Shown in pieces: positions 1-45,749 of a DNA stretch of 57,274 bases (positions are counted from its first letter, which is position 1; each line of letters starts with the position of its first letter). Source of the DNA: Oscillospiraceae bacterium (GTDB lineage Bacteria > Bacillota > Clostridia > Oscillospirales > Ruminococcaceae). The translations under genes were made by a program, and so were the position numbers. Below the pieces are notes generated by a model. The model saw nothing but the letters and a program-made list of their open reading frames with translations. It was not told the origin of the DNA and did no database searches. The stretch spans positions 1 to 57,274 of the forward strand of contig JAGAUG010000085.1 in the NCBI GenBank assembly GCA_017828935.1. The letters run 5' to 3'.

Positions 1-2
1 AT

Positions 3-125
3 AATCAAATAAAAGTCTTAAAACGAACAGTATACGGTTATCGCAACTTTAATCGATTCAGAAAAAGAATACTACATATATTTTCCTACCGAAGCCGAAA
101 TAACAATGAAAAAGAGGTAGCATAA
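3..125 (+). CDS. ISL3-family transposase, C-terminal fragment (gene runs off the left edge)
   Basis: Frame 3 reads NQIKVLKRTVYGYRNFNRFRKRILHIFSYRSRNNNEKEVA*. The K-V/I-x-K-R-x-x-Y-G-Y/F-R-N-F-x-x-F-R-x-R-I-L tail is the conserved C-terminus of ISL3 (DDE_Tnp_ISL3) transposases. A terminal inverted repeat follows 22 nt downstream. Confidence 0.6.
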   Translation, partial: NQIKVLKRTVYGYRNFNRFRKRILHIFSYRSRNNNEKEVA

Positions 126-147
126 CATAATACTACCTCACCAAAAA

Positions 148-188
148 CTATTTACAGGATTTTCCACCCCAACTCTTGACAAAGAACC
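148..188 (+). mobile_element. Right terminal inverted repeat of the ISL3-like element
   Basis: ctatttacaggattttccaccccaactcttgacaaagaacc lies just after the transposase stop. Its reverse complement recurs at 39895-39935 with 40/41 identity. Confidence 0.6.
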
Positions 189-207
189 AAAAAATAATTA
201 AAACTAA

Positions 208-22034: not shown

Positions 22035-23165
<1,131 letters not shown>

Positions 23166-38678: not shown

Positions 38679-39863
38679 ATGAACAGAAAGGTTTCAGTTG
38701 GAATTTTAATAGCAATAGTATGTATTACTTGCGCAATGACGATGAGTATTACTACTATTGTGTCACGAAGAATGTTTAACAAAAAAGTACATAATATTAG
38801 TCAATTAGAAACAATGTATAATAAAATAGCGGAAATAGACAAGACGATTAGAAAAAATTATATCGAAGATATTGACGACGATTATTTGTTGGACAGTCTA
38901 GCAAGAGGTTTTATCTTTGGAATCAAAGACGACAAAAATGGAAAGTATATTACGGCTAAAAAATATAAAGAAATTAGAGATATCGAAAACGGAAAGCTTG
39001 TTGGAATTGGTGTTATTGCTGAAAAAGACGTTTCAGGATATATGAAAATTATTGATATTTATGACGAAAGCTTAAAAAATAAAATAAAAAAATCGGATCT
39101 TATAATAAAAATAAACGATATAGATGTTTCTTCTGAAAACTATGAAGAGTGTGAATCGATGATTATTGGTGAACCAGGAACTACTGTTAATTTAGTTGTA
39201 AGACATGGTAAAGAAGATATTGAGTTAGAAATAGTTAGAAACTATTCTGAAATTAAAATGCTTACATATAGACAGTTTGGAAATATTGGATATATAAAAA
39301 TAGTAGGATTTAACGACTCTACTGTTTCTCAGTTTAATAAAGCTATTAGAAAGCTTTTAAGAAATAAAGTCAAGGGAATAGTATTTGATTTAAGAAACAA
39401 TCCTGGAGGGACTTTAAAATCAGTTTGTGCTATTTTAGAACCTATGTTGCCGAGAGAGCAATTTGTTATGATGACTTTAAAAGACGGGTCGACAAAAAAA
39501 TTAAATTACAGAGGAACGAATAAAATAAAAATTCCGTTGGTAACAATTATCAATCAAAAATCAGCGAGTGCAGCAGAGTTGTTTGCTCAGGCTTTAAAAG
39601 ATTATAACAGAACTAAAATAGTTGGAGTTAATTCTTTTGGAAAGGGGACAATGCAACATATTTTTGAGCTTAGAGATGGATCGGCGTTGAATTTAACATT
39701 TGCAAAGTTTAAAACTTTAAAGAGTCCTAATTTTGATGGAGTAGGTGTAAAGCCGGATTTTGAAATTAGACTAAGTTCTGAGCAAGAAGCTTCTTTTGAA
39801 TTATTAAACGAAAGAACAGATCCTCAATTAAAAAAAAGCTTAGAGCTTTTAAAAACAAAATAA
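38679..39863 (+). CDS. S41-family carboxy-terminal processing peptidase
   Basis: N-terminal membrane anchor, PDZ region, DLRNNPGGTL, catalytic SASAAE, and a downstream GKGT motif. Confidence 0.88.
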   Translation: MNRKVSVGILIAIVCITCAMTMSITTIVSRRMFNKKVHNISQLETMYNKIAEIDKTIRKNYIEDIDDDYLLDSLARGFIFGIKDDKNGKYITAKKYKEIRDIENGKLVGIGVIAEKDVSGYMKIIDIYDESLKNKIKKSDLIIKINDIDVSSENYEECESMIIGEPGTTVNLVVRHGKEDIELEIVRNYSEIKMLTYRQFGNIGYIKIVGFNDSTVSQFNKAIRKLLRNKVKGIVFDLRNNPGGTLKSVCAILEPMLPREQFVMMTLKDGSTKKLNYRGTNKIKIPLVTIINQKSASAAELFAQALKDYNRTKIVGVNSFGKGTMQHIFELRDGSALNLTFAKFKTLKSPNFDGVGVKPDFEIRLSSEQEASFELLNERTDPQLKKSLELLKTK

Positions 39864-39894
39864 AGTTTGAAATAAAATTTTAGAAAAATTATTT

Positions 39895-39995
39895 GGTTCT
39901 TTGTCAAGAGTTTGGGTGGAAAATCCTGTAAATAGTTTTATATAGTTTTTATATAGATAGTATAAGTTTTTTATACTATCTCTTTTTTTGGATTT
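39895..39995 (-). mobile_element. Remnant of the right end of an ISL3-like element (solo terminal repeat plus sub-terminal hairpin)
   Basis: 39895-39935 is the reverse complement of 148-188 (40/41 identical). The next 60 nt keep the same architecture as the intact copy (tagtttt spacer, hairpin, homopolymer run) but with diverged sequence. No transposase ORF follows. Confidence 0.65.
39955..39989 (+). terminator. Intrinsic terminator for the S41 peptidase gene, supplied by the IS remnant
   Basis: agatagtata / tatactatct (10-bp perfect stem, 7-nt loop) followed by c + T7. Confidence 0.7.
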
Positions 39996-40034
39996 TAAAT
40001 CTAAAAATTTACTAAAATTTTTTTATAAAAACAC

Positions 40035-40063
40035 TTGACATATAATAAAAAATATATTATAAT
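40035..40063 (+). promoter_or_regulatory. Promoter of the GLUG-repeat protein gene
   Basis: TTGACA, 17-nt spacer, TATAAT (perfect consensus). AGGAGG Shine-Dalgarno at 40093-40098. Confidence 0.55.
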
Positions 40064-40106
40064 ATAATAAAAAACATATTTTTTGTTTTATTAGGAGGAA
40101 ATTTTT

Positions 40107-41894
40107 ATGTATTTTATAAAAAAATTAAATAATTTAAAAAATAATTTAAATATTAAATTACCAAAATTTGGTACGGGGGGGGGTACTAGTAGATATAAAT
40201 ATATAATAATTTTTATTATATTTATACTAAGCATTAGTATTCGGTCTTTTGGAGTTACTATGGATAGTGAAGGCAATACGGATTCTACACTACTACCTGC
40301 TAATTATAAGTATGCAGAAAAAGGTAAAGTAGTAGAAAGAGTGGACGAGAAGGCAAAGTTGCCGATAAAAAATAGTCAGGGTATTTATGAAATTAACGAC
40401 GAAAAAGAGCTAAGGGGCTTTGCTGACATAGTCAAAGGATATGAGCAGTATATGAACTCAAGCAATACAGGAGGAATAAATAGGGTCAAAGCAGAAACAT
40501 CAGCCAACGCGATATTAACTAAAGATATCGAAGTAATTGATTCGACGAATACTTATGCATGTAGTGGCTTACAAGCTCTTCTTGCTGGAACAAAAACAAT
40601 TGATACTCTTGATTCTACAAAAAAAACAGCTTTAGAAGATTTAAATTGGGTTCCGATCGGCGATAATCATGAAATATCAAGCGGTGTGTATTGTCAATAC
40701 ACAGGGACTTTCGACGGAGCAGGACATACGATAAGCGGGATATACTGTAATGTTTATAATGCGTCAGGAAGTGCTTATGTGGGATTATTTGGATATGTTG
40801 GCGAAGGTGGAGAGATTAAAAACTTAGGAATAAAAAATTCGTATATCAGTGGTAATGGTACAGGTAGCAATGGTAGTAGCGATGTCGGAGGAGTAGTAGG
40901 TTTTTGCGGAGGAACGGTTACTAGTAGCTATGGAGAGAACAATACATTAATAGGAAATGGAACAACGTCTAATGTCGGAGGAGTAGTAGGTTTTTGCGCA
41001 GGAGCTGGTTTAAATAAAAGAATTGTAAAAAATTGTTACGGAGCGAATAACAAAATAAGTGGAACAGGAAATAATTCTAACGTCGGAGGAGTTATAGGGA
41101 TCTGTGGTAGTGGAGGAGAAGTAAAGAGTTGTTACGGAGCGAATATAGATTTAACAGGAACAAACAAAGGCGGAATATGTGGAAGTGGTTTAGGGACGAT
41201 AAGTAATTGTTATTATTTAAAAGATGCGGAGCAAAGAATTAATGAGAGCTTATATGGAATAGGAGGTACTGAAACAGACGATGAAGCTACAACAAGAGCG
41301 ACGAGTATTGGAGAATTCAAAGGAAATATAGAAATAACTGTTGATAGGAAACAAACAACTGTTTTAGACGCTTTAAACGCCGAGAGAAAAGTGTTTATAA
41401 AAAATATAAATTTAAAGCCGGGTAGTCACGAATATTTATTGTTGGTCGGAGAATATGAAAAATTATTAAAGATCCCGGTTAGAGTTAAAATAAACTACGA
41501 TCCGAGTAATAATTTAGAAAAGTGGGTTCAGGATCATGTAAGACATGAGTTTTTTAGAAAATCGACTGAGGATTGGGAGTCGATGACTGAAGGTACAGAA
41601 TATAAATTTGATATTGATTTAGTGTCGACAAAGATCGGTGTCGACGGAACTAAAACCCAAGATTTTATATTTAGTTATTATATATTCAAGGCTGAAGATA
41701 CTGATCAATTTGGGTTTAATAAAAGTTATATAAACGTTAAAGACGACAGTTCTAACTACGGAATGAAAGCCGGGAACGCGTTTATGACATACATGAAACA
41801 AGATGTCGGCGGCGGAAAGAAATTATTTATAGATTACGATATAGACCCGAAACAAATATTAGAAAACTACGAAAATTATAATTCTGGGTCTTAA
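40107..41894 (+). CDS. GLUG-motif repeat protein, membrane-anchored or secreted
   Basis: N-terminal hydrophobic anchor (YKYIIIFIIFILSISIRSFGV). At least five GLUG-type repeats (YVGLFGYVGEGGEIKNLG, DVGGVVGFCGGTVTSSYG, NVGGVVGFCAGAG..NCYG, NVGGVIGICGSGGEVKSCYG, NKGGICGSGLGTISNCYY). No LPXTG motif. Confidence 0.8.
   Translation: MYFIKKLNNLKNNLNIKLPKFGTGGGTSRYKYIIIFIIFILSISIRSFGVTMDSEGNTDSTLLPANYKYAEKGKVVERVDEKAKLPIKNSQGIYEINDEKELRGFADIVKGYEQYMNSSNTGGINRVKAETSANAILTKDIEVIDSTNTYACSGLQALLAGTKTIDTLDSTKKTALEDLNWVPIGDNHEISSGVYCQYTGTFDGAGHTISGIYCNVYNASGSAYVGLFGYVGEGGEIKNLGIKNSYISGNGTGSNGSSDVGGVVGFCGGTVTSSYGENNTLIGNGTTSNVGGVVGFCAGAGLNKRIVKNCYGANNKISGTGNNSNVGGVIGICGSGGEVKSCYGANIDLTGTNKGGICGSGLGTISNCYYLKDAEQRINESLYGIGGTETDDEATTRATSIGEFKGNIEITVDRKQTTVLDALNAERKVFIKNINLKPGSHEYLLLVGEYEKLLKIPVRVKINYDPSNNLEKWVQDHVRHEFFRKSTEDWESMTEGTEYKFDIDLVSTKIGVDGTKTQDFIFSYYIFKAEDTDQFGFNKSYINVKDDSSNYGMKAGNAFMTYMKQDVGGGKKLFIDYDIDPKQILENYENYNSGS
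40175..40183 (+). repeat. G9 homopolymer in codons 23-26 of the GLUG gene
   Basis: ggtac-ggggggggg-tactag encodes T-G-G-G. It is the longest G/C run I could find in the window; the next is a G6 in tgt at 22255-22260. Confidence 0.95.
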
Positions 41895-41906
41895 TAAAAT
41901 AAAAAT

Positions 41907-41961
41907 AAAAAAGCTTATTAGAAAATTTAAAATTAAATTAATTTCTAATAGGCTTTTTTTT
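41907..41961. terminator. Bidirectional intrinsic terminator between the GLUG gene and the DAHP synthase gene
   Basis: A 12-bp stem (gcttattagaaa / tttctaataggc, one G-U) flanked by an A6 run upstream and a T8 run downstream. Confidence 0.75.
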
Positions 41962-41978
41962 GAGCTAAGAAAAAAATT

Positions 41979-42773
41979 TTATATATTTAGTGAATTTAAT
42001 AATTTTCTTGTTTCGTCGAAATTTAATTGTTGTCTTGAATCAGAAAGCGCTTTTTCAGGCTGAGGATGTGTTTCTATCATTATACCGTCCGCTCCGGCGA
42101 CAATAACTGATTTAGCAATTTCGTTTATTATATCTTTTCGTCCTAAAGAGTGGCTTAGATCCGCGATAATCGGTAATTTTGTATATTTTTTTATTAAAGC
42201 TATCGAAGAAATATCTAACATGTTTCTGACGCTATTTTCAAACGTTTTTATTCCGCGTTCACACATCAAAATATTTCTGTTACCTTCGAGCGCTAAATAT
42301 TCCGACGCTAATATAAATTCTTCTAAACTGGCGCACATTCCTCGTTTGAGTAACACAGGTTTTTTTGATTTTCCGAGTTCTTTTAACAAATCAAAGTTTT
42401 GCATATTTCTTGAACCAACTTGAAATATATCGATATATTCAGAAAGTTTTTTTATATCCCGAATATCTGTTATTTCTGAGACGGTTATTAGATTATATTT
42501 TTTAGAAATGTGTTTACTAAACTCTAAACCTTGATCTCTTAAGCCTTGAAAACAATATGGCGAAGAACGTGGTTTATATAGACCAGCTCTTAAAAATTTA
42601 ATTCCAATACTAGACAAGAATTTCGCTGATTTTTCTAACATCTGTTGATTTTCAACGCTACAAGGTCCAGCAATAACTATGGGCGACGATATATCTAAAT
42701 TAAAAATATTTCTAATATCAAAAAATTTTTTACTAGAACCAGTTGCTACCAACGGGAATTTTTTTATATTCAT
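41979..42773 (-). CDS. aroF: 3-deoxy-7-phosphoheptulonate (DAHP) synthase, type I-beta, no regulatory domain
   Basis: IAGPCSVEN, KPRSSPY.FQGL, FQVGSRNMQNF, LLKRG and DLSHS..GR motifs of the DAHPS/KDO8PS I-beta family. In a Gram-positive context DAHPS is the likelier call. Confidence 0.8.
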   Translation of the reverse strand: MNIKKFPLVATGSSKKFFDIRNIFNLDISSPIVIAGPCSVENQQMLEKSAKFLSSIGIKFLRAGLYKPRSSPYCFQGLRDQGLEFSKHISKKYNLITVSEITDIRDIKKLSEYIDIFQVGSRNMQNFDLLKELGKSKKPVLLKRGMCASLEEFILASEYLALEGNRNILMCERGIKTFENSVRNMLDISSIALIKKYTKLPIIADLSHSLGRKDIINEIAKSVIVAGADGIMIETHPQPEKALSDSRQQLNFDETRKLLNSLNI

Positions 42774-42905
42774 AAAAGACCTCTATTTTTATGTTTTTAA
42801 TTATAAAACAAAATAGACAACTTATAACGTATTTTTATATAACGAAATAAGTTGCCAATTTTTTTAGTTTGTTTTAATAAATTAAATTGTTTTTTAAATT
42901 ATTAA

Positions 42906-43181
42906 TTATTCATCGCGCATATTCGCAAAACATTCGCTACAATAGACTGGGCGACCTTCAGTTGGTTTAAAAGGAACCTTTGCTTCTTTGCCGCAATTAG
43001 CGCAACTTGCTGTATACATTTGTCTACCAGCTCTAGCTGCTTGTTTTTTAGCATCTCTGCATTCTTTACATCTTTGAGGTTCGTTTGTGAACCCTTTCTC
43101 AGCAAAGAATTCTTGTTCACCTGCTGTAAAAACAAATTCCTTTCCGCAATCTTTACAAACTAAAGTCTTGTCTTCGTACAT
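42906..43181 (-). CDS. CxxC-x17-CxxC zinc-ribbon protein (two modules)
   Basis: 91 aa with CKDCGKEF...(17)...CKECR and CANCGKEA...(17)...CSECF. Visibly more GC-rich than its surroundings. GAGG Shine-Dalgarno. Confidence 0.8.
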   Translation of the reverse strand: MYEDKTLVCKDCGKEFVFTAGEQEFFAEKGFTNEPQRCKECRDAKKQAARAGRQMYTASCANCGKEAKVPFKPTEGRPVYCSECFANMRDE

Positions 43182-43382
43182 AACTACTTTACCTCGCTTA
43201 ACTGAATTAAATTAAAAATTAAATATTTACGCCCATTTACGGTAACGAACCGCATATTGAATATAATATTAAATATATATAAAACTAAATATAAATATCT
43301 TAAAATAGAATACACAACGCTCTCTTGAGCAAAGGGCACACGAAAATAATTCTTAAAAATCATTTTAACTACGCTATAAGAT

Positions 43383-43411
43383 ATTATAAGCGATAAAAAA
43401 CAAAAAGTCAA
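43383..43411 (-). promoter_or_regulatory. Promoter of the zinc-ribbon gene
   Basis: Minus strand reads TTGACT (43411-43406), 17-nt spacer, TATAAT (43388-43383). This implies a 5' leader of about 190 nt. Confidence 0.5.
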
Positions 43412-43585
43412 CTAATTTTTAATTATAAATAAAATAAAAGAAAATAGCTGGCTAATATTTGGTAATCGATTATAAAATAATGACAAGTTTTAAATAAATT
43501 TTAAGTGATATATATAAAAAATAACTTATAAATACGAAAATTATTTTAATAATAATATTATTTAAATAATTTTAAAAATTTTTTA

Positions 43586-43624
43586 TAAAAATATCCGGCC
43601 TTTTTTAAAGACCGGATATTTTTA
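43586..43624. terminator. Bidirectional terminator downstream of the C39-like peptidase gene
   Basis: atatccgg / ccggatat stem with A-rich and T-rich flanks on both sides. Confidence 0.6.
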
Positions 43625-43641
43625 GCTGTCTTTAATTATTT

Positions 43642-44448
43642 TTAATTTTCTGTTTTTTTAGAAATACAAACATATTGCTGGATACTTTGGTTAGCAGGTA
43701 CGACATCGTGATCGAACCATTCGCCCATAAACCTTCTAACACTTCCGAATGTGTATCCATTTTGGTCGTGGTAATTAGTATCATATGGATCAGCAAAAAC
43801 CAAAACATGAGAAGTTGTGTCATCAGGGATACCCATATCATCATAACCGACGATAACTCTCCAATGTCCTCCAAATTCAACGTTTTCCACCAATATTACT
43901 GAGTTTTCTTTTAGTTTAGATTTAATAAACTTAGAAAGTTCTAGTGATGAATCAAACGACTTGCCGTTTGATTTTTGAGTATCGAAAGATGATGTTACGT
44001 TAAAACCTCTGTTTTTAAACGAATTTACAAGAGCCTCAGTAGTCGTTCCCCAAGAGCCATCTTCCCTTGGGTTTCTTGGACTTCTTGTGTCCATTTCTTT
44101 TACTAGGGCGTTTTCTGATACATCACATACACCAAAATGATTAAGAGCCATCACAGCACAAGCAGCTCCGCATGACCAACCTGAAGTTTGTTGGTATGTT
44201 TTAAACTTATCTAATTTAACAAGTGTATTTGTTGGAGATGTATTATAAAAATCAATGCATTTATAATACGGAGAATTTGGAATATTTGCCTTGCCCTCTT
44301 GATCTACGGCTGCAGCACCTAAAATTTTGTTGTCAACAGCTTCAAGTATTGGAATCTTGCTTTCGTTTGCTGCGACAGATATTAAACATAAATTAGTCGC
44401 TAAAACAGCTGTTAATCCTGAAAAAATAACTTTTTTTGTTTTCGTAAC
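43642..44448 (-). CDS. Secreted papain-fold cysteine peptidase, C39-like family
   Basis: The minus-strand frame is open from 44448. It encodes a signal peptide (KTKKVIFSGLTAVLATNLCLISVAA/NES), the catalytic region YQQTSGWSCGAACAVMALNHFG, and the His region GGHWRVIVGYDD. The track ORF (43642-44154) starts after the catalytic Cys. There is no ATG, GTG or TTG in the first 98 codons. GGAG lies 8 nt before the GTT at 44448. Confidence 0.7.
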   Translation of the reverse strand, partial: VTKTKKVIFSGLTAVLATNLCLISVAANESKIPILEAVDNKILGAAAVDQEGKANIPNSPYYKCIDFYNTSPTNTLVKLDKFKTYQQTSGWSCGAACAVMALNHFGVCDVSENALVKEMDTRSPRNPREDGSWGTTTEALVNSFKNRGFNVTSSFDTQKSNGKSFDSSLELSKFIKSKLKENSVILVENVEFGGHWRVIVGYDDMGIPDDTTSHVLVFADPYDTNYHDQNGYTFGSVRRFMGEWFDHDVVPANQSIQQYVCISKKTEN

Positions 44449-44817
44449 TTAAAAAACTCCTTTGTTTATAGTTACTTGTAAAAATTTGTGTTATCAAAAA
44501 ACAAAGAATAATAAATATTCTTGCGATAACTCTTACAAGTGTAAATTATAAATTATAAATTAATTAAAGACTGATTAAAAAAACATATTATATATAATTT
44601 GTTAAAAATAAGCTCTAAATATATAATAATATGTATTTTTGGAAAAGTCAAGAATTTGTAAAAAAAACAAAAAATTTATTTTATTTTTGTTATATATTAT
44701 CTTAACACGGCATTACAAAAAAATATTTCAAAAATATTTGAATTTTTATAGAATCTTAATTAAAAAAACAGTATTTGAATTAATAATAAAATTTAATAAT
44801 AATTTTGGTATGAACAG

Positions 44818-44846
44818 TTGAAAAAATATTAATATTGGGTTATAAT
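44818..44846 (+). promoter_or_regulatory. Promoter of fba
   Basis: TTGAAA, 17-nt spacer, TATAAT. It sits about 57 nt upstream of the ATG. Confidence 0.4.
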
Positions 44847-44903
44847 TATAAGTAGTCAAAGAGCACTAATTAAATTTATTGATAGTTTTAGGAGAGTAAT
44901 GAA

Positions 44904-45749
44904 ATGTTGGTTACAGGTAAAGAAATTTTAGACAAAGCTAATAAAGAAAACATTGCTGTCGGAGCTTTTAATATTAATAACATGGAATGCTTACAAGCTG
45001 TTATCGCGGCAGCAGAAAAAAAACAATCAGCAGTTATAATTCAAACATCAGAAGGAGCAATAAAATACGCCGGTTTAGATTATTTGGCTTCGATGGTGAA
45101 GCTTGCTGCTCAAAAAGCCAGCGTTCCCATCGCGCTACACTTAGATCACGGAACGACTTACGAAACAATTATAAACTGTATCGTTAGCGGGTGGACTTCA
45201 GTAATGTTTGACGGTTCGCACTACGATTTAGAAAATAATATAAAATATACCAAAGAAATCGTGAAAGTTGCTCACGCTTGCGGAGTAAGCGTTGAAGCTG
45301 AGCTTGGTAGACTTTCTGGAGTTGAAGACCAAATCGCTGTCGACGAAAAAGACGTAATGTTTACGGATCCTAATCAAGCAAAAATTTTTGTTCAAGAAAC
45401 AGGTGTAGATTCGTTAGCGATCGCGATCGGTACGGCTCACGGAGTTTATAAAGGCGAACCTAAATTAGATTTCGAAAGACTTTTGGAGATAAAGTCTTTG
45501 TTAAAGATGCCGATAGTTCTACACGGCGCCTCAGGAATTAGCGCTGAAGATCTAAAAAAAGCTATTAAATTAGGAGTTAACAAAATTAATATAGATACAG
45601 ATATAAGACTAGCTTTTAAACAAGGTTTTGAAGAAGTGTTGAAAAATAAACCAGAAGAGTTTGACCCTAGAAAGCTTTGTGGGTCGGCGCGAGAAAAAGT
45701 CCAAAAAGTTGTTGAAAATAAAATAGATATATTTAGCTTAAATATTTAA
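44904..45749 (+). CDS. fba: Class II fructose-1,6-bisphosphate aldolase
   Basis: FNINNMECLQA N-terminal region, HLDHG, FDGS, and the GTAHGVYKG..LDF...LVLHGASG motifs. Confidence 0.93.
   Translation: MLVTGKEILDKANKENIAVGAFNINNMECLQAVIAAAEKKQSAVIIQTSEGAIKYAGLDYLASMVKLAAQKASVPIALHLDHGTTYETIINCIVSGWTSVMFDGSHYDLENNIKYTKEIVKVAHACGVSVEAELGRLSGVEDQIAVDEKDVMFTDPNQAKIFVQETGVDSLAIAIGTAHGVYKGEPKLDFERLLEIKSLLKMPIVLHGASGISAEDLKKAIKLGVNKINIDTDIRLAFKQGFEEVLKNKPEEFDPRKLCGSAREKVQKVVENKIDIFSLNI

Follow-up and report, generated by a model that had tools for sequence, protein, structure and literature searches.

A G9 tract in the leader of a GLUG-like protein gene as the probable hypermutable element of a phase-variation switch in a paralogue family of an Oscillospiraceae bacterium

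Phase variation by simple repeats is textbook knowledge for Neisseria, Haemophilus, Campylobacter, Helicobacter and the mycoplasmas. The opa genes of Neisseria occupy about 11 loci and carry a CTCTT pentamer repeat in the leader-coding region, and the switch of the Mycoplasma Vlp proteins is a poly(A) in the promoter, which acts on transcription. The opa genes are described as a scattered multigene family of surface proteins with independent ON/OFF loci and recombination between paralogues (PMC3745409). In Campylobacter jejuni and Helicobacter, whose genomes are AT-rich, intragenic G/C runs of at least 8 residues turn surface-related genes ON and OFF by frameshift (PMC8355987, PMC2823697). A surface-protein gene of a Firmicute, inlA of Listeria monocytogenes, is inactivated by length changes in a 5′ poly(A) (PMC2831843), and in mollicutes paralogous surface proteins (MBA of Ureaplasma) undergo switching as well as recombination that gives chimeras (PMC3047005). 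Genomes with many phase-variable loci appear to be restricted to pathogens, possibly through database bias (review PMC11868660). The mechanism considered below is a textbook one, but neither for this lineage nor for this protein family did we find it described: a literature search gave no paper in which GLUG proteins are connected with phase variation or with homopolymeric tracts. A search on the bacterial families concerned here together with contingency loci was uninformative, as unrelated microbiome papers dominated its results.

The locus described here lies in a stretch of 57,274 nt with 30% GC, the whole of which is called the window. The gene and the elements of its leader are:

40107..41894, + strand: coding sequence of a predicted secreted or surface beta-solenoid protein of 595 aa, in frame (ON) here
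40118..40124, + strand: A7 tract in codons 4-6, possibly a second, weaker slip site (A8 in the L001 copy)
40168..40170, + strand: TTG, which a G10 (+1) allele puts in the body frame
40175..40183, + strand: G9 homopolymer, the proposed slipped-strand switch (6, 8, 9 or interrupted in the family)
40203..40241, + strand: codons 33-45 (IIIFIIFILSISI), 3′ of the tract, hydrophobic core of a signal peptide or anchor (from the translation; helix 29-46 in the structure model)
40259..40261, + strand: ATG of Met52, the first canonical start in the body frame once the leader is out of frame

The NCBI annotation contains an identical protein of 595 aa (P0128). The local sequence is GGTAC-GGGGGGGGG-TACT, in which the G residues occupy exactly 40175-40183; they begin at the last base of the ACG codon 23, take in codons 24-25 (GGG GGG) and end at the second base of the GGT codon 26. 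Sequence readout and translation thus bear out a preliminary description of this DNA, which had placed nine G residues in codons 23-26, 5′ of the hydrophobic segment. It had also named the tract as the longest G/C homopolymer with a G6 as the next, and indeed there is no other G/C run longer than 6 in the window; the runner-up is a G6 at 22254-22259, within a gene that matches Pfam TGT (E 1.7e-159). A first-order Markov model of the window predicts 0.011 G/C runs of 9 or more, and G9 was present in none of 300 windows simulated with it. Runs of 10 or more A or T are absent from the window, where about 6.8 and 2.1, respectively, are expected, indicating that long homopolymers are otherwise avoided there. 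With regard to codon usage, 13.5% of the glycines in the window are encoded by GGG and 17.7% of the threonines by ACG, so that the spelling ACG-GGG-GGG has a probability of about 0.003 per locus; yet a run of 6-9 G is retained in 11 of the 12 5′ ends compared below. In approximately 108 kb of DNA from this lineage, G/C runs of at least 8 residues are confined to leaders of the same gene family. The tract is improbable both by chance and by codon choice, and its length is within the range (G/C of about 7-8 or more) at which a mononucleotide tract is regarded as hypermutable in a simple sequence repeat (SSR) contingency locus.

Simulation of the frame gave the products that the preliminary description had predicted: loss of one G resulted in ...TGGVLVDINI-stop and gain of one G in ...TGGGY-stop. 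As in an SSR locus, the tract is located within the reading frame near its 5′ end, and a change of one residue in either direction leads to early termination, with stubs of 32 and 27 aa. When the frame of the leader is lost, annotation falls back on the start at Met52, which gives a 544-aa product without signal peptide (P0001 in L001; simulation). In a simulated G10 allele, initiation at the TTG would produce MVRGGGTSRYKY followed by the hydrophobic segment, in a putatively functional product of 575 aa.

These frame relationships could also be explained by recoding, in which RNA polymerase slippage or ribosomal frameshifting yields full-length protein from G8 and the tract tunes the expression level. 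Transcriptional slippage is possible on homopolymers of 8-9 residues, and a case on poly(A) in Buchnera is noted in PMC2831843; the +1 allele, moreover, frames the TTG at 40168 with a plausible short signal peptide. Against this, no Shine-Dalgarno sequence is present upstream of that TTG, an Rfam search of 39000-45500 gave no match and no frameshift-stimulating structure was found across this region, and the loci do differ in tract length at the DNA level. We consider recoding very unlikely. In loci of the family with long 5′UTRs, Rfam identified only a tRNA and a 6S RNA.

The window gene is a member of a multigene family and not a lone gene. The 'Oscillospiraceae bacterium' MAG lineage contains at least 11 paralogues with a common promoter, RBS and leader with A7 and the G tract. 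We compared the tract in 12 sequenced 5′ ends (L002 and L003 are the same and were counted once) and found the following states:

ON: window gene, G9; L037a, G9; L036, G6; L041, ACA + G8; L038, interrupted (ACAGAGGGAGGGACT)
OFF by exactly one missing G (G8): L002 = L003, L034, L035, L037b, L046 and L047
OFF by A8: L001 (G tract = G9)

G9 is therefore present in three ends and G8 in six distinct genes, while G6, A+G8 and the interrupted tract were found once each. Every G8 allele regains a long ORF when a single G is inserted: L002/L003 then encode 593 aa up to a natural stop and are complete, and in the remaining G8 alleles the ORF reaches the contig end after 55 to 342 aa. Neither L002 nor simulated G8 forms of the window gene and L037a have a canonical start in the body frame 5′ of the hydrophobic segment; in L002 that frame contains no ATG, GTG or TTG there. 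Across the 12 5′ ends the length is thus polymorphic and the out-of-frame ORFs are otherwise intact, as expected of SSR loci. Indels of the leader outside homopolymers are of 9 or 12 nt, multiples of three that keep the frame, and frame-breaking changes of the leader consequently occur only in homopolymers, where they are concentrated in the G tract. On this comparison the tract is a frameshift hot spot. G8 was found on at least three groups of leader haplotypes, interspersed with G9, which suggests that it arose by independent events. Counting against a switch, gene conversion of the cassette could spread G8 without repeated slippage. One assembly, ERZ28018929, contains eight family loci, 3 ON and 5 OFF; as in opa, paralogous loci with a leader repeat of their own are present there in mixed states.

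The comparison with related genomes and MAGs, which revealed a conserved leader, variable G length and intact OFF alleles, and the frameshifts at the hot spot support the phase-variation reading put forward in the preliminary description. As to the scope of the comparison, a search with the leader peptide returned only two 32-aa OFF stubs and no ON proteins, and is not a census. A DNA scan and a protein-pattern scan of genome contigs detected no relative, the lineage being absent from the GTDB species representatives searched, and the viral contigs scanned gave no match. Metagenome contigs scanned with the 22-mer 3′ of the tract gave 30 loci, all of them an unrelated marine gene without a G tract. 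A pairing of L034 (G8) with L036 (G6) as alleles of one gene was rejected, as these are mosaic paralogues and not orthologues; mosaic proteins were seen among the paralogues.

The same distribution could be obtained if the tract were a static Gly3 spacer of the signal peptide and the G8 copies irreversibly dead pseudogenes of a decaying family. The interrupted tract of L038, an intact gene with a Thr-Glu-Gly-Gly linker, would fit this, as would the occurrence of the same G8 in two assemblies (L002 and L003); in L001 a 25-nt promoter deletion, additional to A8, suggests decay. Decay does not readily account for six distinct genes whose only inactivating lesion, as far as the ORFs can be read, is at one 9-nt site, each being restored by one G. 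Rare codons are also kept at the DNA level across paralogues, several leader haplotypes carry G8, and the state differs between assemblies despite identical gene bodies. We therefore regard the static spacer as unlikely. The tract of L038 cannot slip, which means that a Gly-rich linker is tolerated without mutability.

The differences in state between assemblies concern two genes. L001 differs from the window gene in having A8 instead of A7, which gives MYFIKKIK-stop; against window positions 40118-44894 it has no substitutions and is otherwise 100% identical. The second gene (P0006) encodes 329 aa with G9 in L037a. In the NCBI MAG, J6C55_03740 (P0142) is a complete protein of 275 aa equal to residues 55-329 of the P0006 protein; this call, taken from annotation and not DNA, is exactly what a G8 allele would give. 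Two genes with 100% identical bodies thus have one on/off state in the annotation of the NCBI MAG and another in that of ERZ28018929, which for one and the same gene is indirect evidence of polymorphism. It counts against a switch that the G tract itself is unchanged where DNA of the same gene is available from two assemblies (G8 in both L002 and L003, G9 in both the window gene and L001). The BioSamples behind the assemblies are adjacent (SAMN15830104-109), so that the assemblies may lack independence.

The 5′ cassette and the flanks of the gene consist of the following features:

39888..39939, - strand: solo terminal inverted repeat, remnant of an ISL3-type IS, between ctpA and the cassette
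39947..40253, + strand: conserved 5′ cassette (promoter, 5′UTR, RBS and signal-peptide leader), roughly 300 bp
40035..40063, + strand: sigma-70-type promoter TTGACA-17-TATAAT, 12/12 consensus match
40093..40098, + strand: RBS AGGAGG, 8 nt 5′ of the ATG (sequence readout; conserved in alignment A2)
41907..41961, unstranded: intrinsic terminator (hairpin and U-run) common to this gene and the convergent DAHP synthase gene, MFE -18.5 kcal/mol

The cassette is 86-93% identical in nucleotide sequence to those of nine other loci, and the gene bodies diverge. The same -35/-10 pair is found in L002, L035, L037b, L038, L046 and L047. The statement in the preliminary description that the gene has its own perfect promoter holds with regard to the consensus. 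Its second part, the link between promoter and body, is less secure, as it depends on the repeated cassette, at which other assemblies are interrupted or have different joins; the junction in the contig may be recombined or misassembled. Four other assemblies break within the cassette, in L041 the same ctpA-side promoter is joined to a different body (P0003), and in L001 the body of the window gene is joined to another upstream region. A 184-aa protein upstream of L001, used as a query for a reciprocal exchange, had no matches.

The breaks in four assemblies and the different joins of L041 and L001 raise the question of whether the G8/G9 differences and the locus structure are artefacts of homopolymer sequencing error or of assembly over the repeated cassette. 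It is known that Illumina consensus errors are uncommon in 8-9-mers, which counts against sequencing error. In addition, a single read can span the tract and the unique body sequence, which are only 71 nt apart; G9 is found in the window as well as in L001; and the G8 of P0002 is identical in two assemblies, the NCBI annotation of this gene beginning at the same fallback TTG. An artefact is accordingly highly improbable.

The IS remnant reported next to the gene was verified. Its 52 nt (39888-39939) match 144-195 with 96% identity in inverted orientation, and 144-195 form one end of an ISL3-type element with the C-terminus of a transposase at 3-125 of the window (PF01610, E 8.5e-5; the score of 22.9 bits is just below the curated cut-off of 23). 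The terminal inverted repeat is therefore shared with an element bearing DDE_Tnp_ISL3, as is characteristic of the ISL3 family. The remnant is context and lies outside the switch. The terminator hairpin has a z-score of -4.4, with none of 200 shuffles as good, and the same element is found 3′ of the paralogues in L037 and L038.

The encoded protein has a signal-peptide-like N-terminal leader, followed by a predicted beta-solenoid and a conserved C-terminal domain:

40659..41306, + strand: residues ~185-400, predicted beta-solenoid of GxxGG(V/L)(V/I)G repeats (GLUG-like)
41469..41838, + strand: family-specific conserved C-terminal domain (LKIPVRVKINYDPSNNLE ... KQDVGGGKKLFIDY), with DNA similarity to L036, L037 and L038

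The beta-solenoid fold is typical of adhesins and depolymerases. In the AlphaFold2 model the solenoid has a pLDDT mostly above 90 and short strands in a regular series; Foldseek found no match of the model in the PDB at E<=0.001. A Pfam search with the window protein gave no match at all, not even to PF07581 at E<=1, and the name of GLUG protein given to it in the preliminary description is in this sense not supported. It does apply to the family, as PF07581 was detected in 4 of 10 paralogues (best E 6.5e-10) and in most remote homologues. On sequence the window protein is best described as a divergent GLUG relative, or GLUG-like. Like GLUG-motif proteins (PF07581), it has repeated G-x-x-G-G-(L/V)-(V/I)-G units and is predicted to fold as a beta-solenoid; it differs from them in the leader and the C-terminal domain. 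Both of these are lineage-specific; among 1.84 billion proteins, only 13 representatives match the C-terminal domain. The window protein showed no anchor motif.

Of the systems introduced above, Neisseria opa resembles the family described here in several features: multiple loci, each with its own promoter and a slippery repeat in the signal-peptide coding region, mixed states and, here, mosaic proteins. It differs in that the repeat is a CTCTT pentamer and not a G homopolymer, and an outer-membrane beta-barrel is encoded, whereas the present family belongs to Gram-positive-type Clostridia and is predicted to form a beta-solenoid. Homology to Opa was not detected (no Pfam match; the predicted fold is not an 8-stranded barrel), and the resemblance would be one of mechanism only. 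The long intragenic G tract, the AT-rich genome and the ON/OFF frameshift are as in Campylobacter jejuni and Helicobacter, where, however, the genes that bear tracts are unrelated to one another and in many cases encode glycosyltransferases, whereas here a single cassette recurs in copies throughout one protein family. With A7 in the window gene and A8 in L001, there is also a difference of the kind seen in inlA, which is a single gene with poly(A) and mostly loss of function, unlike the family-wide G tract found here. The mollicute Vlp/Vsa and MBA families resemble this one in combining variable bodies with a strongly conserved 5′ region and signal peptide; however, the Vlp switch is transcriptional, MBA switches by site-specific inversion, and lipoproteins are involved there instead of GLUG-like solenoids.

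Overall, comparison of the sequences makes it probable that a translational phase-variation switch, with the G9 tract as its hypermutable element, operates in a lineage-specific family of at least 11 secreted GLUG-like beta-solenoid proteins. Each member has a consensus sigma-70 promoter and a strong RBS, and a leader consisting of a lysine-rich n-region, Thr-Gly-Gly-Gly encoded as ACG GGG GGG GGT, and then the hydrophobic core of the signal peptide. In the proposed mechanism, slipped-strand mispairing during replication would add or remove a G. A tract that keeps the frame (G9 or G6 after ACG, G8 after ACA) would give the full signal peptide and an exported protein (ON), and G8 would lead to a stop after a stub of 28-32 aa and no exported protein (OFF). 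With a tract of its own in each paralogue, a genome would show a combination of ON and OFF members, and segmental recombination between paralogues would generate further sequence variation. Switching would be frequent and reversible within a population, the protein may be exposed at the surface, and the variation may be selected, for example by phage, host immunity or adhesion to substrate. We hold as evenly poised the wider proposal that this uncultured, low-GC, putatively gut Clostridia MAG runs an Opa-like system of antigenic and phase variation, in which a dozen or so lineage-specific secreted beta-solenoid proteins would share a copied promoter-leader cassette with independent poly-G toggles, cassette recombination would shuffle bodies and upstream contexts, and some copies would have a long 5′UTR with an anti-Shine-Dalgarno hairpin.

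A practical consequence is that gene callers shorten OFF alleles by choosing starts within the gene (giving 544, 545 and 275 aa in the cases seen here), and the family and its signal peptides are for this reason systematically mis-annotated; at the repeated cassette, contigs break or are mis-joined by assemblers. If the switch is real, a commensal anaerobe would possess a multi-locus SSR 'phasome', a counter-example to the restriction of such genomes to pathogens. Slippage would then be, besides invertible promoters, a further means by which commensal anaerobes appear to hedge their surface repertoire.

The homopolymer census of the window (57,274 nt, 30.4% GC) revealed only one G/C run longer than six, the nine G residues at 40175-40183 in the sequence ...AAATTTGGTAC GGGGGGGGG TACTAGTAGA... 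The next-longest is a G6 at 22254-22259 within tgt (PF01702, E 1.7e-159). The preliminary description had placed the nine G's at codons 23-26 of a surface-protein gene and ranked them as the longest G/C homopolymer of this AT-rich window, ahead of the G6 in tgt; both points were borne out. Under a first-order Markov model of the window 0.011 G/C runs of nine or more are expected, and none of 300 simulated windows carried a G9. The same simulation gave approximately 6.8 A-runs and 2.1 T-runs of ten or more, none of which is present in the window, and G9 stands out further because long homopolymers are avoided elsewhere. As a separate observation, about nine A/T runs of this length are expected from the dinucleotide composition of this 70% AT window, and T-runs of eight or more are depleted (6 observed versus 14 expected). 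In approximately 108 kb of DNA of this lineage all G/C runs of eight or more are located in leaders of the gene family described below. GGG accounts for 13.5% of Gly codons and ACG for 17.7% of Thr codons; these frequencies give P ~0.003 per locus for the spelling ACG-GGG-GGG, and this choice of codons speaks for selection on the DNA itself.

The tract lies immediately ahead of the hydrophobic segment of an open reading frame that begins MYFIKKLNNLKNNLNIKLPKFGTGGGTSRYKYIIIFIIFILSISIRSFG and whose product is present in NCBI as a 595-aa protein (P0128). The features of this region are as follows.

39947-40253: conserved cassette of about 300 bp (promoter, ribosome-binding site and leader)
40035-40063: perfect TTGACA-17-TATAAT promoter
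40107-41894, forward strand: 595-aa open reading frame, with AGGAGG 8 nt upstream of its ATG
41907-41961: hairpin, AT-rich and followed by a U-run (z -4.4), separating the family gene from the convergently oriented DAHP synthase gene

The hairpin was missed by the consensus terminator scan; the same element is found downstream of paralogues on contigs L037 and L038.

Simulated slips of the window gene confirmed the earlier claim that a change of one G in either direction truncates the product ahead of the anchor: loss of one G results in a 32-aa stub ending TGGVLVDINI and gain of one G in a 27-aa stub ending TGGGY. In the simulated G10 allele a TTG at 40168 would enter the body frame and give MVRGGGTSRYKY followed by the hydrophobic core. 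Since no Shine-Dalgarno sequence precedes this TTG, the G10 state is probably OFF or very low.

The GLUG label given to the gene is based on paralogues, of which 4 of 10 match Pfam GLUG, and on remote homologues; the window protein itself had no match to Pfam GLUG even at E<=1. AlphaFold2 predicted a confident beta-solenoid for residues ~185-400 (pLDDT mostly >90), followed by a beta-rich C-terminal region of lower confidence. A PDB structure search with this model gave no match at E<=0.001.

A protein search with the window protein identified a close cluster of related proteins (E 1e-67 to 1e-212), below which scores fall sharply to generic GLUG proteins. All close relatives come from the NCBI entry 'MAG: Oscillospiraceae bacterium' (J6C55 locus tags) or from ENA metagenome assemblies. 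Since J6C55 tags mark every close relative in NCBI, the window, which is an entire NCBI contig, most likely belongs to this MAG as well. Their leaders are nearly identical, the cassette is 86-93% identical across loci, and the bodies share 38-62% amino-acid identity, converging again in a family-specific C-terminal domain, which only 13 of 1.84 billion representative proteins match. A more divergent member, P0137 (632 aa, on a 7.1 kb ENA contig), has a different leader (…ETDNGGGIWKYKYKIKNKYIIIFLICIF…), which at the protein level also puts Gly-Gly-Gly just ahead of the hydrophobic core. Two RNA genes lie near other members: a 6S RNA gene (66 bits; L046 1865-2054) ~950 nt upstream of one and a tRNA gene (L037 6531-6602) ~220 nt upstream of another. 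Some members carry an insertion of 130-220 nt between promoter and ribosome-binding site, at the following positions.

L046: 2860-3000
L047: 55-195
L034: 1-100
L036: 1-99
L037: 2780-3000

In its predicted fold a 5′ GUCCUC pairs with the GGAGGA ribosome-binding site and two hairpins are formed (z-score -3.3 in L046, only -0.6 in L047). The Rfam search of the insertion found no family match. The insertion may serve to control translation.

Twelve family 5′ ends were readable and their tracts were compared.

Tract state and leader frame at the twelve readable 5′ ends (L, loci on other contigs; L037a and L037b, two loci on L037)
Locus; tract; leader relative to body
Window; G9; in frame
L037a; G9; in frame
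L036; G6, one Gly fewer; in frame
L041; ACA + G8; in frame
L038; interrupted ACAGAGGGAGGGACT, encoding TEGG; in frame
L002 = L003, L034, L035, L037b, L046, L047 (six distinct genes); G8, exactly -1; out of frame
L001; A8 in place of A7; out of frame

Over ~150 nt in these 12 sequences frame-breaking differences were observed only in homopolymers, six of the seven in the G tract, and all remaining leader indels are 9 or 12 nt. Addition of one G restores a long reading frame in every G8 allele: in L002/L003 it reaches the natural stop after 593 aa, and in the others it stays open to the contig end for 55 to 342 aa. The body frame of the L002 G8 allele has no ATG, GTG or TTG ahead of the hydrophobic segment, and therefore no signal-peptide-bearing product is predicted. 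At least three groups of leader haplotypes, interspersed among those with G9, carry G8, which argues that it arose by repeated events; gene conversion of the cassette could also have copied the G8 state between loci.

In two cases the same gene was found in different states in different assemblies; the BioSamples behind the assemblies are neighbours, and the same strains may be present in them. In the separate assembly ERZ28018929 (locus L001) the window gene is identical from 40118 to 44894, with 0 substitutions in 4,777 nt, and its leader has A8 (2858-2865) in place of the A7 of the window (40118-40124) in codons 4-6, giving MYFIKKIK-stop (8 aa). The gene call falls back to Met52 (P0001, 544 aa). 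On the 5′ side L001 has five 5′UTR substitutions, lacks the -10 box through a 25-nt deletion, and is preceded by other genes than in the window. The A7/A8 tract may act as another switch of lower rate, or the difference may be simply a mutation. The P0006 gene is G9 in L037a and encodes 329 aa; in the NCBI MAG, J6C55_03740 (P0142) is a complete 275-aa protein identical to residues 55-329 of P0006. Simulation of L037a as G8 gave exactly the 275-aa call, and as G10 a call of 312 aa from TTG. This points indirectly to a difference in state, the NCBI side being annotation rather than DNA. Together, the two cases indicate that the homopolymers change state within kilobases of otherwise unchanged sequence, which is the signature of a hypermutable site.

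Mixed states were also observed within one assembly. ERZ28018929 has eight loci of the family, each among different housekeeping genes, with the leader in frame (ON) in L037a, L038 and L041 and out of frame (OFF) in L001, L003, L035, L037b and L046. The NCBI MAG annotation is likewise mixed: the window gene, P0003, P0004, P0009, P0010 and P0132 have full-length leaders, and P0002, P0142 and probably P0011 have fallback starts.

Mosaic members point to gene conversion of segments between paralogues: P0129 is P0002 with a ~50-residue block (residues ~62-112) replaced by window gene sequence, and P0132 combines P0005 with a C-terminus of the P0002 type. As a repeat, the cassette exceeds the length of one read. 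In four other assemblies (L039, L040, L042, L043) the ctpA contig ends inside it, and L045 begins 18 nt past the tract. In L041 (3321-3758; compare window 39864-40260) the identical ctpA-side promoter precedes the P0003 body instead of the window gene, and in L001 (2690-3003) the window gene body stands behind an AAA ATPase, 64-aa and 184-aa ORFs and the promoter without a -10 box. The join of promoter to window gene may be one of two reciprocal recombinant arrangements at the cassette, or it may be an assembly chimera. Tract and body are only 71 nt apart and can be spanned by a single read; the window and L001 agree in this linkage. The perfect promoter attributed to the gene is present; its link to the gene holds for this contig only, because the cassette repeat breaks or joins differently elsewhere. 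The IS remnant said to adjoin the gene proved to be a solo 52-nt terminal repeat upstream of the cassette (39888-39939), inverted and 96% identical to 144-195. The latter stretch is the terminus of an ISL3-type element within which the contig begins (window 1-195, comprising the transposase C-terminus and the terminal repeat). The P0002 paralogue is followed closely by a 27-nt partial copy of the repeat (L002 6695-6721; L003 3882-3908).

Overall, the comparison between loci and assemblies makes it quite probable that the tract is an ON/OFF switch operated by slipped-strand mispairing; we infer heterogeneity within populations and reversibility. This would be phase variation of the classical slipped-strand kind, acting on translation and repeated throughout a family. 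The family comparison thus supports the candidate switch proposed initially, and widens it from one gene to a family with recombination at the cassette. In function, Neisseria opa comes closest, with numerous loci that each have their own promoter and a repeat in the signal-peptide coding region, independent locus states, and inter-locus recombination, which is visible here too. Opa is referred to as a known phase-variation system (PMC3745409), the mechanism is already known for poly-G/C tracts of Campylobacter and Helicobacter (PMC8355987, PMC2823697), and 5′ homopolymers are general switches, including that of the Firmicute surface protein InlA (PMC2831843). Our literature search found no description of phase variation or homopolymeric tracts in GLUG-type proteins, and its results for Oscillospiraceae and related families were uninformative. 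The mechanism is well known; what is new here is its apparent occurrence in this family, for which the comparative evidence is solid.
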